Positions 39,001 to 45,000 of a stretch of 64,000 bases of DNA are shown piece after piece. Location: assembly GCA_965202985.1 (NCBI GenBank), contig CBDBCF010000002.1:1-64000 (forward strand), read 5' to 3'. A program made the position numbers. Position 1 is the stretch's first letter; the number at the start of each line of letters is the position of its first letter. This DNA comes from Longimicrobiales bacterium. GTDB taxonomy: Bacteria; Gemmatimonadota; Gemmatimonadetes; Longimicrobiales; Gaopeijiaceae.

Positions 39001-42000
39001 TCTCATGGGCGTCGGCGACGATTCCGTGTCGCTGTCGGTCGTGACCCTGAGGATGGCCTCCGAGTTTACGAGTGCAGCGACCTTTCGACAGACGCTGACC
39101 GTTTCCCGCGACGAGCTTGAAGGCCTGTCGGCCAGAGAACTCTCTGCGTGGCGGACCGGCGTTGTCGGGGTCTTGGCGGCGGCGTTGGCCTATGTTGTCG
39201 TCGACCGCGTCCAACAGGAAGTGGGGGGCAACACGGACGACGACGGGGACGACGGGACGCCCACAGGATCATTGATTTCGGGTCGGATGGGAAGGTAGGA
39301 AGGCGGAGTCGGCTGGCGATATCCGGCTACGGTTCCGGTCGGTTCCATTCTTGCCGCGCCGTATTGCCGTCGCCACGTTTAGCCCCCATGCGATTCTTCA
39401 ACACGACAGGTCCGGTGGTGGCGGCCGACCACTACCTAATCCCGCCCCTCGACCGCGTGGACCTTGCCGAGCTCCGTCGGCTGATCGGGGAGAAGCGGTA
39501 CTTCGTGCTCTACGCGCCCCGGCAGACCGGCAAGACTTCGGCGCTCCTGGCGTTGCAGAGCTTGTTGAACGAAGAAGGCGACTACCGTTGCGTCTACGTA
39601 AACGTGGAGGGTGCGCAGGCCGCCCGAGAGGACGTGGGCCGCGTGGTCCGAGCCGTGCTGAGCGAGCTGGCTTCTCGAGCGGAAGACGGCCTCGGCGACG
39701 ATTCGCTCGAGGAAGTATGGCCGGAGGTTTTGGCCAAGCACGGTCCCGACGCGGGCTTGCGAGTGGCGCTGACGCGGTGGGCACGGGCCGTCCCCAAGCC
39801 GTTGGTGCTGCTGATCGACGAGATCGACGCCTTGGTGGGGGATTCGCTTCTGTCGGTGTTGCGGCAGTTGCGGGCGGGGTACGACATGCGTCCGGGCGGT
39901 TTTCCTCAGTGCGTGGTGCTGTGCGGGGTTCGGGACGTGCGGGACTACCGGATTCATTCGAGTTCGGCGAACACGCTGGTAGCGGGCGGGAGCGCGTTCA
40001 ACGTCAAGGCGAAGTCGCTGCGGCTGGGCGACTTTTGTCGAGACGAGGTGCGGGCGCTGCTGCGTCAGCACACGGAGGAGACGGGCCGGGCGTTTTCGGA
40101 GGAGGCGTTGGAAAGGGTGTGGGCGGAGACTCGGGGCCAGCCGTGGCTGGTGAACGCGCTGGCATACGCGATGTGCTTCGAGGGCGGGGACGGTGCGGGC
40201 CGTTCGCGGCGGGTCGAGGAGGCGGACGTTGTCGATGCGCGAGAGGCGTTGATCCGGCGTCGGGACACGCACTTGGACCAGTTGGCGGACAAGTTGCAGG
40301 AGGAGCGTGTGCGGCGGGTTGTGGAGCCGTTGCTGGCGGGTGGCGGGAAGACGAAGTTCGCGCCGCGCGACCTGGAGTACGCGCGGGACCTGGGGCTGGT
40401 GGCGAAGGACCTTCCGGTGCGCATCGCGAACCCGATCTACGGGGAGGTGGTGCCTCGGGAGCTGTCGTGGGAGCCGCAGGCGAACTTGGCGCAGGACCCG
40501 TCGTGGTACGTGAGCGAGTCGGGGGAGTTGGAGTTGGAGAAGTTGCTGGGGGCGTTCCAGGAGTTCTTCCGGGAGCATTCGGAGCACTGGGTGGAGCGGT
40601 TCCAGTACAAGGAGGCGGGGCCGCAGTTGCTGTTGCAGGCGTTCTTGCAGCGGGTGGTGAACAGCGGGGGTCGGATCGAGCGGGAGTACGGGCTGGGGCG
40701 GGGGCGGACGGACCTGCTGGTGCTGTGGCCGGCGGGCGGTGGTCGGGTAGGCGGGCGAGTCGGCCCGGCCGAGCGCGGGGGCGGGGCTGGGCCAAGCCCT
40801 CGGATGCGGAGGTACGTCGTGGAGTGCAAGGTGCTGCGCGCGGGGCTGGAGCGGGCGGTGGCGGAGGGGGTGGAGCAGACGGCGGGCTACATGGACGGAT
40901 GCGGGGCGGAGGCGGGGCACCTGGTGGTGTTCGACCGTCGGGAGGGGCGGAGCTGGGAAGAGAAGGTGTTCCGGCTGGACCGGACGGCCGAGAACGGAAC
41001 CGAGATCGCGGTCTGGGGCATGTAGGAGGCGGACCCGTGCGATTCTTCAACACGACAGGTCCGGTGGTGGCGGCCGACCACTACCTAATCCCGCCCCTCG
41101 ACCGCGTGGACTTGGCCGAGCTCCGTCGGCTGATCGGGGAGAAGCGGTACTTCGTGCTCCATGCGCCCCGGCAGACGGGCAAGACCTCGGCGTTGCTGGC
41201 GCTGCAGAGCTTGCTGAACGACGAAGGCGACTACCGTTGCGTCTACGTGAACGTGGAGGCGGCGCAGGCGATGCGCGAGAACGTGCCGGCCGCGGCCGAG
41301 GTGATCCTGAGTCAATTGGCTCGCCGGGCAATGACCGGGGCGGGCGACGAGTTCCTGACTCGCGAGTGGCGGGGGATCCTCGACGAACACGGTGCCGGCG
41401 CAGTGGGAGAAGCCCTGGCCCAGTGGGCGGAGGCGTCCGACAAGCCGTTGGTGCTGCTGATCGACGAGATCGACGCCTTGGTGGGGGATTCGCTTCTGTC
41501 GGTGTTGCGGCAGTTGCGGGCGGGGTACGACATGCGTCCGGGCGGTTTTCCTCAGTGCGTGGTGCTGTGCGGGGTTCGGGACGTGCGGGACTACCGGATT
41601 CATTCGAGTTCGGCGAACACGCTGGTCGCGGGCGGGAGCGCGTTCAACGTCAAGGCGAAGTCTCTGCGGCTGGGCGACTTTTGTCGAGACGAGGTGCGGG
41701 CGCTGCTGCGTCAGCACACGGAGGAGACGGGCCGGGCGTTTTCGGAGGAAGCGTTGGAACGGGTGTGGACCGAGACTCGGGGCCAGCCGTGGCTGGTGAA
41801 CGCGCTGGCATACGCGATGTGCTTCGAGGGCGGGGATGGTGCGGGCCGTTCGCGGCGGGTCGAGGAGGCGGACGTTGTCGATGCGCGAGAGGCGTTGATC
41901 CGGCGTCGGGACACGCACTTGGACCAGTTGGCGGACAAGTTGCAGGAGGAGCGTGTGCGGCGGGTTGTGGAGCCGCTGCTGGCGGGTGGCGGGAAGACGA

Positions 42001-45000
42001 GGTTCGCGCCGCGCGACCTGGAGTACGCGCGGGACTTGGGGCTGGTGGCGAAGGACCTTCCGGTGCGCATCGCGAACCCGATCTACGGGGAGGTGGTGCC
42101 TCGGGAGCTGTCGTGGGAGCCGCAGGCGAACTTGGCGCAGGACCCGTCGTGGTACGTGAGCGAGTCGGGGGAGTTGGAGTTGGAGAAGTTGCTGGGGGCG
42201 TTCCAGGAGTTCTTCCGGGAGCATTCGGAGCACTGGGTGGAGCGGTTCCAGTACAAGGAGGCGGGGCCGCAGTTGCTGTTGCAGGCGTTCTTGCAGCGGG
42301 TGGTGAACAGCGGGGGTCGGATCGAGCGGGAGTACGGGCTGGGGCGGGGGCGGACGGACCTTCTGGTGCTGTGGCCGGCGGGCGGCGGTCGGTTAGGCGG
42401 GCGAGTCGGCCCGGCCGAGCGCGGGGACGGGGCTGGGCCAAGCCCCCGGATGCGGAGGTACGTCGTGGAGTGCAAGGTGCTGCGCGCGGGGCTGGAGCGG
42501 GCGGTGGCGGAGGGGGTGGAGCAGACGGCGGGCTACATGGACGGATGCGGGGCGGAGGCGGGGCACCTGGTGGTGTTCGACCGTCGGGAGGGGCGGAGCT
42601 GGGAAGAGAAGGTGTTCCGGCTGGACCGGACGGCCGAGAACGGAACCGAGATCGCCGTCTGGGGCATGTAGGAGGCGGACCCGTGCGATTCTTCAACACG
42701 ACAGGTCCGGTGGTGGCGGCCGACCACTACCTAATCCCGCCCCTCGACCGCGTGGACTTGGCCGAGCTCCGTCGGCTGATCGGGGAGAAGCGGTACTTCG
42801 TGCTCCATGCGCCCCGGCAGACGGGCAAGACCTCGGCGTTGCTGGCGCTGCAGAGCTTGCTGAACGACGAAGGCGACTACCGTTGCGTCTACGTGAACGT
42901 GGAGGCGGCGCAGGCATTTCGGGACGACATGGAACAGGCCTTGCGCGCGGTGCTGGCCGGCCTCGCGTCCCGTGCCCGCCGACTGGGCGACGACTTCTTG
43001 GCGAAGCAGTGGATCGACATCTTCGCGGACTATGGCCCCGGCGCGCTGGGCGAGGCGTTGCTTCGGTGGGCGGAGGCGTCCGACAAGCCGTTGGTGCTGC
43101 TGATCGACGAGATCGACGCCTTGGTGGGGGATTCGCTTCTGTCGGTGTTGCGGCAGTTGCGGGCGGGGTACGACATGCGTCCGGGCGGTTTTCCTCAGTG
43201 CGTGGTGCTGTGCGGGGTTCGGGACGTGCGGGACTACCGGATTCATTCGAGTTCGGCGAACACGCTGGTCGCGGGCGGGAGCGCGTTCAACGTCAAGGCG
43301 AAGTCGCTGCGGCTGGGCGACTTTTGTCGAGACGAGGTGCGGGCGCTGCTGCGTCAGCACACGGAGGAGACGGGCCGGGCGTTTTCGGAGGAGGCGTTGG
43401 AACGGGTGTGGACCGAGACTCGGGGCCAGCCGTGGCTGGTGAACGCGCTGGCATACGCGATGTGCTTCGAGGGCGGGGATGGTGCGGGCCGTTCGCGGCG
43501 GGTCGAGGAGGCGGACGTTGTCGATGCGCGAGAGGCGTTGATCCGGCGTCGGGACACGCACTTGGACCAGTTGGCGGACAAGTTGCAGGAGGAGCGCGTG
43601 CGGCGGGTTGTGGAGCCGTTGCTGGCGGGTGGCGGGAAGACGAGGTTCGCGCCGCGCGACCTGGAGTACGCGCGGGACCTGGGGCTGGTGGCGAAGGACC
43701 TTCCGGTGCGCATCGCGAACCCGATCTACGGGGAGGTGGTGCCTCGGGAGCTGTCGTGGGAGCCGCAGGCGAATTTGGCGCAGGACCCGTCGTGGTATGT
43801 GAGCGAGTCGGGGGAGTTGGAGTTGGAGAAGTTGCTGGGGGCGTTCCAGGAGTTCTTCCGGGAGCATTCGGAGTACTGGGTGGAGCGGTTCCAGTACAAG
43901 GAGGCGGGGCCGCAGCTGCTGTTGCAGGCGTTCTTGCAGCGAGTGGTGAACAGCGGGGGTCGGATCGAACGGGAGTACGGGCTGGGGCGGGGGCGGACGG
44001 ACCTTCTGGTGCTGTGGCCGGCGGGCGGTGGTCGGGTAGGCGGGCGAGTCGGCCCGGCCGAGCGCGGGGGCGGGGCTGGGCCAAGCCCTCGGATGCGGAG
44101 GTACGTCGTGGAGTGCAAGGTGCTGCGCGCGGGGCTGGAGCGGGCGGTGGCGGAGGGGGTGGAGCAGACGGCGGGCTACATGGACGGATGCGGGGCGGAG
44201 GCGGGGCACCTGGTGGTGTTCGACCGTCGGGAGGGGCGGAGCTGGGAAGAGAAGGTGTTCCGGCTGGACCGGACGGCCGAGAACGGAACCGAGATCGCCG
44301 TCTGGGGCATGTAGCGAGAAAGACCCGCGTCCCCCTTTATTCCTCCCCCTCCAGCACGCGCGCCGGGCGCAACGCTTCTCGTCCGAACCGATCTCGCACC
44401 TGATCGGCGGCCCGCGCGATCCGGCGGTCCCGGTCCGACTCCGGGCCGAACGGCTTGCCCGGCCGACGAGGCCCCCTGCCGTCCCGCGCCGTCGCACCGT
44501 CGTCGTCGAACAGCTCCATCTGCCGGCCCGCGGCTTGCCGCACCAGGTTGCCGACCGCCACGCCCAGCAGCCGCACGCCGGTTCGTCGGCGATGGCGGAG
44601 TTCGCGAAGCAGGGAAGCGGCCACCTCGAACAGCCCCCGGTCGGTCTCCATGCCTTCGGGCTGCGTGCTGCCCGCCTGGCGCGTGCGGAAGTCGTGGTCG
44701 CGAACCTTGACGGTCACGGTGCGCGCGCGCAGCTCCTTGGCGCGAAGCTGGGCGCCCACCGAGCAGCAGAGGGCGAGAAGACGGCGCTCCAGCTCGTCGT
44801 CGTTGCCGATGTCCTGGAAGAAGGTCCTCTCGGTGCTGATCGACTTGCGACGGTCGCGGGCGTCCACCTCGCTGGGGTCGATCCCGCGCACGCGCTCCCA
44901 CAGCCAGTGCCCCCGAGTCGACCCGAACCAGCGCAGCAGCCACTTGCGCTCCACGGCGGCCGCGCCGGCCACGGTGCGAAGCCCCTTCGCCTCCAGCTGT

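Follow-up and report, generated by a model that had tools for sequence, protein, structure and literature searches.

Expansions of single genes of the PD-(D/E)XK type are already in print for DUF1703 and Rpn. DUF1703 (PF09820 AAA-ATPase_like plus PF08011 PDDEXK_9) is expanded to 25 divergent paralogs in the symbiont Cardinium cCpun (PMC6387759; PMC1913061). The rpn genes are gained and lost as single genes with variable ends, lack terminal repeats and target duplications, form tandem arrays and reach up to 26 copies (PMC10400941); once called transposases, they have been judged not to be (PMC10400941, section 5). Rpn has been shown to act in phage defence, and one variable segment is taken as a sign of conflict (PMC10400941; PMC5350276). 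Variable domains can also move between loci: target-recognition domains of type III (and type I) restriction-modification genes pass from one gene to another through recombination at the conserved motifs that flank them (PMC3467074). In the ATPase TnsC a DNA-binding initiator-specific motif (10.1101/2021.05.24.445525) sits where the variable cassette described below lies.

We analysed a window of 64,000 nt (positions 1-64,000 of contig CBDBCF010000002.1) from a sponge-associated Longimicrobiales bacterium (GCA_965202985.1, here G000). It holds three intact tandem ORFs of a multicopy family that joins a STAND-like ATPase to a putative nuclease domain (Table 1). As in DUF1703, an AAA+ module linked to archaeal ATPases precedes a C-terminal domain of PD-(D/E)XK type with Gln in the second core helix, paralogs recombine, expansions have occurred repeatedly and independently, and no function is assigned. 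The window proteins, however, match neither PF09820, which gives weak matches in 19 of 47 relatives (best E 1.1e-6), nor PF08011, found weakly in 5 of the 47 (E<=0.01); among distant relatives at least 3 of 46 match PF08011 at E<=1e-4, at least one of them above cut-off. Walker A is APRQ[ST]GK[TS] in all 20 intact copies, never the RPRRFGKS type of DUF1703. Copies here are 59-94% alike, against 39% in Cardinium, and the accounts of the Cardinium paralogs consulted here report neither apparent homogenisation nor a cassette.

Rpn (YhgA-like, PF04754) shares the PD-(D/E)XK type and the same pattern of gain and loss, ends and arrays, but has no ATPase, and what varies in it is a set of 4-aa repeats within an intragenic antitoxin at the C terminus. 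The window proteins do not match PF04754; two G000 genes do, and belong to a separate, true Rpn-like family. The restriction-modification case likewise has a variable domain that moves by recombination in conserved flanking motifs, but there it is the proven DNA-recognition domain of a methyltransferase, whereas here it is a helical ATPase insert of putative role with no common partner methylase.

Family census and domains

A tblastn search found 33 family segments in G000, making up 26 copies or pieces (k numbers) at 20 places, with one weak match and one 33-codon remnant left out of the count. Twenty copies are intact and six broken; amino acid identity among the intact ones is 59-94% (median 71%). 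The initial annotation, with 23 copies at 66-94%, was right that the gene is multicopy; both the count and the range are larger here. Matches occur in four of 60 relatives (3/3 congeners plus one genus) and in none of the other 56, where five and 55 had been given; many of the 56 are fragmented assemblies, and five with 1-8 contigs likewise lack the family. That the family is large, estimated before at over 8000 matches, agrees with our 8288 representatives at E<=0.001. Expansions recur in 16 other genomes, with 1-28 copies each. A literature search, mostly without subscription papers or supplements, returned nothing on this family or its cassette.

AAA_22 scored above cut-off for the window proteins. 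In the structure model, residues 1-367 have the P-loop core, helical lid and following domain of archaeal-ATPase/STAND-like NTPases, and match the archaeal ATPases 2qen (Z 18.9, rmsd 4.2, 319 residues aligned) and 2fna (Z 17.8), then plant NLRs (Z 15.9) and the initiator-clade AAA+ proteins Cdc6/Orc1 (Z 14.2), TnsC and MuB (Z 13.2-13.9 for the last two). These whole-model searches confirm the archaeal-ATPase/Cdc6-like fold suggested earlier. The likeness is one of modelled fold: identity is 10-19%, C-terminal sensor repeats are absent, the family's nuclease domain is C-terminal, the cassette is not visibly basic, and there is no transposase partner.

The C-terminal domain is a putative PD-(D/E)XK-type nuclease. 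D442, E479, K481, Q497 and Y501 are invariant in 47 aligned homologues, and a model of pLDDT 82.5 has the helix, three strands, helix, strand order of the core. The motif is kept in 20/20 intact G000 copies, in line with the invariance reported before, but its first spacing is E-x8-D and not E-x(9)-D. No solved nuclease appeared in the whole-model fold lists, which the ATPase part filled; the domain has no fold match of its own, its separate model (pLDDT 49) being too poor for a fold search. All three tandem copies carry an insertion of about 20 residues in this domain, and three other G000 copies have merely shorter ones. A PDB sequence search gave zero matches, NCBIfam one non-significant row and PADLOC 0 families at E<=1. 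For a transposase domain there was no Pfam or NCBIfam match.

The tandem triplet

Table 1. Features of the triplet and its flanks (positions in the window).
Feature	Position	Strand	Basis
Left flank: two small ORFs downstream of a gene pair that we take to be SusC/SusD-like	38276..39298	+	
Promoter-like site: TTGC-type hexamer, 17-nt spacer, -10-like hexamer 8 nt before ATG	39351..39379	+	sequence
Copy 1 (k17), 545 aa: P-loop ATPase, helical lid and following domain, C-terminal PD-(D/E)XK-type domain (putative nuclease)	39388..41025	+	
Copy 1 Walker A APRQTGKT, Walker B LLIDE	within 39388..41025	+	
Variable cassette version 1, aa 75-136; helices between strand 2 and Walker B strand	39610..39795	+	
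Putative nuclease domain of copy 1, aa 411-545: E433-x8-D442, E479-C-K481, Q497-x3-Y501	40618..41022	+	
Gly-rich insertion of about 20 aa in nuclease domain	40735..40800	+	alignment; pLDDT under 50
First spacer, 11 nt; AGGAGG overlaps copy 1 stop, 7 nt before copy 2 GTG	41026..41036	+	sequence
Copy 2 (k18), 544 aa, GTG start	41037..42671	+	
Variable cassette version 2, 61 aa	41259..41441	+	
Second spacer, 11 nt, identical to first	42672..42682	+	sequence
Copy 3 (k19), 543 aa, GTG start	42683..44314	+	
Variable cassette version 3, 60 aa	42905..43084	+	
Right flank: dinB (IMS family)	44337..45593	-	

An mRNA starting from the promoter-like site would be leaderless or near-leaderless, and the AGGAGG would couple translation of copies 1 and 2. 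The same promoter-like layout precedes 6 of 20 first-in-array copies vs 36 of 1460 other genes, and in three other genomes a -10-type box lies 5-9 nt before ATG in 6/28, 8/14 and 6/6 copies vs 2/560, 0/280 and 4/120 control positions, both patterns having been defined after viewing the sequences.

In congeners the left-flank ORFs are followed by genes that in G000 sit near C2:692-697 kb, and in 4/4 relatives the 3′ neighbour of dinB is a Na/alanine symporter. Because that symporter lies at C2:706-708 kb in G000, we place the triplet at one end of a probable inversion of about 650 kb; its site is a rearrangement breakpoint. An assembly artefact is ruled out as source of the triplet: independent runs contain the two junctions as well as the cassettes. 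Among the joints listed in four sequencing runs, none skips the whole array.

The variable cassette

The tandem copies are about 98-99% identical except in a helical segment of about 60 residues between Walker A and Walker B, a feature that the initial annotation overlooked. Pairs within the triplet differ at 75-83 positions in nt 196-420 vs 15-28 across the other ~1400 nt; between copies 2 and 3, all 75 differences of the first 460 nt fall in nt 234-386. The segment takes in helix 2 together with the insert that precedes the Walker B strand, the initiator-specific-motif position, and looks from its sequence pattern like an interchangeable specificity module.

The pattern recurs elsewhere. Across 12 groups of near-identical copies from five genomes, the alignment window aa 91-120 is at least 20% divergent in seven, and no other alignment window is so in more than two; five groups have no cassette discordance, and in L256 the divergent part is aa ~300-420 instead. 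In 601 old pairs the cassette is the most divergent window (38%), at just 1.46 times the median.

Version 1 is the one native to this gene body, because its best match (0.81; rest of the gene 0.79) is the G001 copy closest overall to copy 1. Among 78 segments the best matches of versions 2 and 3 reach 0.72 and 0.67, and no donor for either was found there. Versions 2 and 3 are at single-copy depth in runs X1, X5 and X7; X7, where all three are, represents a diverged strain whose flanks differ at 81/1911 and 52/2216 letters. The 1.6-kb triple direct repeat persists in several strains. A 60-nt insertion has been homogenised across the triplet. Within the cassette pN (0.32-0.37) is below pS (0.55-0.65), which gives no direct sign of positive selection.

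Genomic sites and mode of spread

Synteny was checked at 18 of the 20 G000 places (k12/13 and k23 left out). Clean empty sites in congeners had been noted before; such single-gene gains make up only five of the 18. Six places carry passenger genes, two lie at island edges, and five, that of the triplet included, at breakpoints; at none of the 18 does a congener have a copy flanked by the same pair of neighbours. Particular sites named in the initial annotation stand: the arginase/ABC-F and nrdJ/amidohydrolase neighbours (the latter is nrdJ/peptidase-M20) are adjacent in 3/3 congeners, and the G003 tandem array at clpB corresponds to an empty site before clpB in G000. Sharing is wider than the single DISARM-linked array described before. 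G000 and G001 are 92-99% identical across that DISARM-like island and its array, but neighbours are common also at k23 (G001) and k26 (G003), and G001 and G003 share two family sites with each other.

Flanks had also been called unrelated beyond the ORF ends. Upstream, 6 of 496 pairs score above all shuffles (k07/k16, k03/k23, k26 with a G003 copy, and three G008 pairs); downstream, 0 of 378 do. At this divergence 12 of 40 orthologous spacers align at all. Neighbours vary by site, and no partner gene common to the sites was found, methylase or transposase included. Clear PADLOC defence genes lie within 3 kb of 3/20 family sites vs 2/20 control stretches (Fisher p 1.0; small sample), or 5/20 when two methylase-motif neighbours are added (p 0.41); defence-island enrichment is unsupported at this reach.

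No dispersed G000 pair is younger than pS 0.38, and congener orthologs have a median pS of 0.46; by these sequence distances the dispersed copies are as old as the split from the congeners. Over 184 dispersed pairs median dN is 0.21 and dS 0.86, with dN/dS about 0.24. Insertion sequences also show many dispersed intergenic copies and empty sites in relatives. In two IS-like control families of G000, however, copies share both ends and are 98-100% identical, whereas the nearest non-tandem family copy is 73-83% identical in nt; with neither near-identical dispersed copies, shared defined ends, a transposase domain nor a constant transposase partner, the G000 family does not behave as an insertion sequence or transposon. 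Retroposition is rejected by inference, since the gene moves together with promoter-like DNA that lies ahead of its start.

Another genome, G070, has younger copies, up to 96% identical. There L316 retains flank of L322 over 48 nt on the upstream and 72 nt on the downstream side, plus another piece of 170 nt, and L332 carries 219 nt with a cut-off neighbour gene of L311. Because these two daughters bear cut-off pieces of donor neighbour genes, copies arise at new sites within a genome, bounded by ragged, deletion-trimmed donor flanks. No target duplication was seen at G000 junctions, where spacers are saturated, and nine young pairs gave just 7-10-nt words at scattered places. The earlier reading, a mobile element without a transposase, is borne out as to position turnover but not as to a defined element, given ragged ends, old copies and passengers. 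Spread by untidy duplication, rather than by a neat jumping gene, is partly supported; self-mobilisation of the family is not established.

Interpretation

The reading that we prefer, to which we give an even chance, is that of a portable single-gene conflict system, a STAND-like ATPase with a PD-(D/E)XK nuclease, whose specificity cassette is swapped by recombination and whose variants are kept as a repertoire. One lineage would have entered the ancestor of the genus, with k06 arriving separately: in an approximate tree (FastTree, recombining genes) 19/20 G000 copies group with congener copies and three named Gemmatimonadota records in a single clade of 35 rows (SH 99), in which species are interleaved, and k06 lies outside. 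Illegitimate, ragged duplication of a DNA chunk, as seen in G070, or carriage as island cargo may then have acted in G000 also, with deletions trimming the unselected flanks. The product would look like a bare ORF, since a -10 box a few nt ahead of the ATG, or transcription running in from a neighbouring gene, would be enough for it. Copies are held under purifying selection and exchange sequence by homologous recombination. Recombination between the conserved motifs YVNVE and KPLVLLIDE would swap the helical cassette, and selection may keep different versions while the rest is homogenised. The cassette might set the target or oligomerisation partner of the ATPase, be it a DNA feature, a protein from an invader or its own kind; assembly driven by ATP would then activate the nuclease, with phage or other mobile DNA as the likeliest target. 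A bolder form of this proposal we offer as a tentative idea: an NLR-like bacterial repertoire, with a constant signalling/nuclease body and an exchangeable recognition cassette of about 60 residues within the ATPase domain that recombination would shuffle in four or more phyla, tandem arrays being co-translated specificity panels against invaders.

A selfish, self-spreading nuclease, whose breaks promote RecA-independent duplication and rearrangement and so raise its own copy number without a transposase, is a weaker form of the idea in the initial annotation and seems unlikely to us. Several facts would suit it: the family has expanded independently in hosts that are unrelated (two of the 16 genomes reach 28 and 14 copies), G070 has young ragged copies, TnsC and MuB are among the fold matches, and RpnA overexpression is reported to raise RecA-independent recombination (PMC5350276). 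The breakpoint sites would too, but their share (5/18) is not above a background taken from the same stretches (36/199, p 0.35), so breakpoint enrichment is unsupported. No young dispersed copy exists in G000, defined ends, visible target duplications and a partner common to the sites are missing, and the persistence of three cassettes in one array is left unexplained.

We likewise rate as improbable that the copies are nearly neutral passengers on islands and duplications in a rearrangement-prone genome, conversion stalling at the most divergent segment so that the cassette is a by-product. An objection to the preferred reading bears on this one: no part of the protein diverges more in old pairs than the cassette does, so the observed pattern could come from a divergence barrier to conversion. 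Consistent with passengers, 71/199 neighbour pairs of congener stretches are not adjacent in G000, Rpn-like genes in these genomes are likewise present or absent as single genes, copies in G002 lie in repeated units that include other genes, and six of 26 copies are broken. Windows nearly as divergent in old pairs (35% and 31%), however, are discordant in 0 and 2 of the 12 groups, the 60-nt insertion was homogenised, dN/dS has stayed at about 0.24 over long times, and the triple repeat is kept in several strains.

That every copy was a separate horizontal gain from other sponge-community members is very unlikely: the nearest non-Gemmatimonadota kin (Latescibacterota, Binatia, Acidobacteriota, Spirochaetia and others, at 60-66%), family reads far deeper than single-copy flanks in four runs, the outlying k06 and the shared DISARM-like island speak for it, but nearly all G000 copies fall in the one Gemmatimonadota clade of the approximate tree, phage records and viral contigs gave zero matches, and plasmid matches reach only about 40%.

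The three window genes amount to a natural controlled experiment, with the same body and three cassettes. If the initiator-specific-motif region sets specificity, that would add a new route by which STAND-like ATPases diversify, in a family of thousands of clusters without assigned function. The case also shows that bare-ORF patterns can arise without a transposase, by ragged duplication and then trimming, a lesson for Rpn, DUF1703 and other multicopy genes of this sort whose annotation calls them mobile.

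Family copies in the genome

We found 33 segments in the genome by tblastn with the first window copy as query. Once one weak match and one 33-codon remnant are set aside, these resolve to 26 copies or pieces (k01–k26) at 20 places. Twenty of the 26 are intact, with 59–94% identity, and the other six are frameshifted or truncated; the expanded multicopy family described in the initial annotation is real, and the expansion is of an already known type. Sections of two reports describe DUF1703 ATPase-nuclease genes expanded to 25 paralogs in Cardinium, with recombination (PMC6387759; PMC1913061). 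The present family resembles DUF1703, yet fails its ATPase profile and its Walker A type. Family matches occur in 4 of 60 relatives, three of these congeners. The closest named records come from Longimicrobiales/Gemmatimonadota, and four of the six best-holding sequencing runs carry the label 'sponge metagenome', which makes a sponge-associated gemmatimonadete the probable host.

The window copies stand head-to-tail with identical 11-nt spacers. The triplet has an unusually high G content (GC skew 0.27; third positions 60% G versus 39–52% in five other copies).

Features of the window and of other loci in the genome
Feature	Location	Strand	Description
Copy 1	window 39388-41025		545-aa ORF of triplet
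Copy 2	window 41037-42671		544-aa ORF of triplet
Copy 3	window 42683-44314		543-aa ORF of triplet
Repeat ORF	window 32291-33097	+	268 aa, several near-identical internal repeats of ~29 aa; this genome only, between genes otherwise adjacent
Type II pair	L057:2056-4190	-	methylase and restriction enzyme
NPP[FY] paralog	L053:5613-8543	-	one of four
NPP[FY] paralog	L066:5337-8291	-	one of four
Two-gene pair	L052:1107-3949	-	downstream of k02
Rpn-like gene	L054:6873-8069	-	in the group of 12
DISARM-like island	L065:1931-5266	-	DrmD match

Protein fold

A structure model was built from 47 homologues (mean pLDDT 82.5). Residues 1–367 best match the archaeal ATPases 2qen (Z 18.9) and 2fna (Z 17.8), followed by plant NLRs (15.9), Cdc6/Orc1 (14.2), and MuB and TnsC (13.2–13.9). 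The C-terminal domain is modelled in the order helix-three strands-helix-strand, and D442, E479, K481, Q497 and Y501 are invariant in the aligned homologues. The PDDEXK_9 profile matched weakly in 5/47 and 3/46 relatives, and structure searches gave no match to this domain of its own. The family has 8288 representatives, labelled only 'AAA-like' or 'ATP-binding protein'.

Insertion sites

In three congeners, neighbours were followed for 18 of the 20 places, using gene maps from in-house gene calling. Spread as a bare ORF, as first proposed, fits five places with clean single-gene gains (k04, k05, k10, k11, k16; only one congener was informative for k11), and not for six gained with passenger genes (k03, k06, k07, k14/15, k25, k26), two at island edges (k01, k20-22) and five at breakpoints (k02, k08, k09, k24, window triplet). 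Even at clean sites the gained DNA exceeds the ORF, by ~60 bp in k05 and ~230 bp in k16. The reported lack of shared flanks stands downstream (shared in 0/378 pairs) and fails for 6/496 pairs upstream; at such divergence, though, no more than 12 of 40 orthologous spacers can be aligned, and unrelated flanks are thus the default expectation. The mobile-element claim is weakened. Breakpoints are not enriched among family places (5/18 versus a background of 36/199). At the window breakpoint, neighbour comparison places a symporter next to dinB in 4/4 relatives, unlike here, and gene order points to a putative ~650-kb inversion, one end of which is occupied by the triplet.

At k07 the passengers, a methylase and a restriction enzyme, are both low in GC; an 18-nt C run precedes this pair. 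The four NPP[FY] paralogs (~950–985 aa) are, by their motifs, probably fused adenine-methylase R-M enzymes; three also carry D-[LM]-ACGTG, two have a family copy immediately downstream, and the two scanned had zero Pfam or PADLOC matches. The pair downstream of k02 is 93–94% identical to one at a different site in the relative G001, with no Pfam match and a weak PADLOC match to mad8. Ten paralogous giant proteins (median ~4300 aa) occupy 10 sites, one directly upstream of k02.

Age and movement of copies

Among dispersed copies no pair falls below a pS of 0.38 (median 0.51, 184 pairs); the median for congener orthologs is 0.46 (35 comparisons). The nearest non-tandem copies are 73–83% identical, versus 98–100%, with shared ends, in two IS-like families. 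The family dN/dS is ~0.24. In a FastTree tree (117 rows, under a model without recombination), 19 of 20 copies share a single clade with those of congeners and with three Gemmatimonadota records, species interleaved; k06 falls outside. From these ages and this clade we infer that the spread happened long ago and mostly within the genus.

The DISARM-like island with its family array (loci L035 and L207 in G001) is 92–99% identical between the two genomes versus ~75–85% for core genes, and occupies different sites, which argues for a recent transfer that brought the array along. Rpn-like genes form groups of 12 and 5 dispersed copies (nearest 79–97% nt identity; PF04754 identity verified for two genes), with ~100 nt in common upstream, homology stopping at the stop codon, and 4-aa repeats close to the C-terminal end. 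By comparison with the ATPase family these genes look younger, and one checked site is empty in 3/3 congeners. For rpn genes, portions of two papers describe an IS-like pattern that lacks the hallmarks of transposases; these genes later proved to be defence genes (PMC10400941; PMC5350276).

Sixteen other genomes picked from family matches hold 1–28 copies each. G070, labelled Vicinamibacterales, has dispersed pairs as high as 96% identical; nine young pairs were examined in detail, with direction readable in two. Its copy at L316 brought 48 nt upstream and 72 nt downstream, the latter taking in the beginning of the gene that follows in the donor, along with a 170-nt piece from 400 nt downstream in the donor; that at L332 brought 219 nt ending inside a neighbour gene. 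The remaining pairs share 0–31 nt upstream and 0–53 nt downstream. These are raggedly duplicated pieces that deletions have trimmed. In G008, homology spans about -40 or -80 through the stop codon, so the earlier impression of tight 3' ends was fair. A -10-like box recurs near the ATG (both promoter patterns were defined post hoc), and SD-like motifs precede only 2/20 first-in-array copies of the window's genome versus 30% of genes; a trimmed copy could therefore stay expressed anywhere.

At L046 (relative G002), copies are embedded in multi-kb units that are themselves repeated and also encode large, repeat-rich proteins (83–88% identical, several broken). Beside intact copies at L336, L326 and L049 lie short repeats, or remnants, of the 3' end or tail of the gene, which may be relics of collapsed arrays.

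Function

An anti-invader conflict function is ranked first by analogy, because of the STAND-like fold, nuclease effector, retained variants and patchy spread. It is unsupported by the neighbour test: clear defence genes lie near 3/20 family sites versus 2/20 control stretches (17 random, three chosen by round coordinates). Self-promoted duplication and near-neutral hitch-hiking are less probable alternatives.

The variable cassette

Tandem copies have 75–83 differences in nt 196–420 versus 15–28 in the remaining ~1400 nt; between copies 2 and 3, differences in the first 460 nt are confined to nt 234–386. This segment between Walker A and Walker B, the cassette, is modelled as four helices that lie between strand 2 and the Walker B strand, and covers the position of the TnsC initiator-specific motif as given in part of one study (10.1101/2021.05.24.445525). 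Its versions, with pS of 0.55–0.65, are old alleles; a point against the swap reading is that cassette pN is below pS.

We compared windows along 95 genes from 13 sources; among them are 20 near-identical pairs, which come from five genomes and fall into 12 independent groups. Residues 91–120 are at least 20% divergent in 7/12 groups and every other window in at most 2/12; in 601 old pairs these residues have only 1.46 times the median divergence. One pair, from Desulfobacterales, shows 52% divergence there and no difference in the next twelve windows. Also counting against the swap reading, five of the 12 groups are without cassette discordance, and at L256 divergence falls elsewhere. The cassette crosses subfamilies: k09 and k21 are 90% alike in it versus 78% elsewhere.

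Both triplet junctions are present in contigs of four runs, and in run X7 (flanks 2–4% diverged) all three cassettes are at single-copy depth. A contig of runs X1 and X4, at 1.7–2.4-fold depth, has three letters absent from all three copies, which, on unphased contigs, fits continuing homogenisation. A divergence barrier to conversion may be another source of the cassette pattern. For R-M genes, part of PMC3467074 describes domain swapping via conserved flanks, and our literature search, confined to main texts, found nothing on this family's cassette. The swappable cassette is the part of the finding worth testing.
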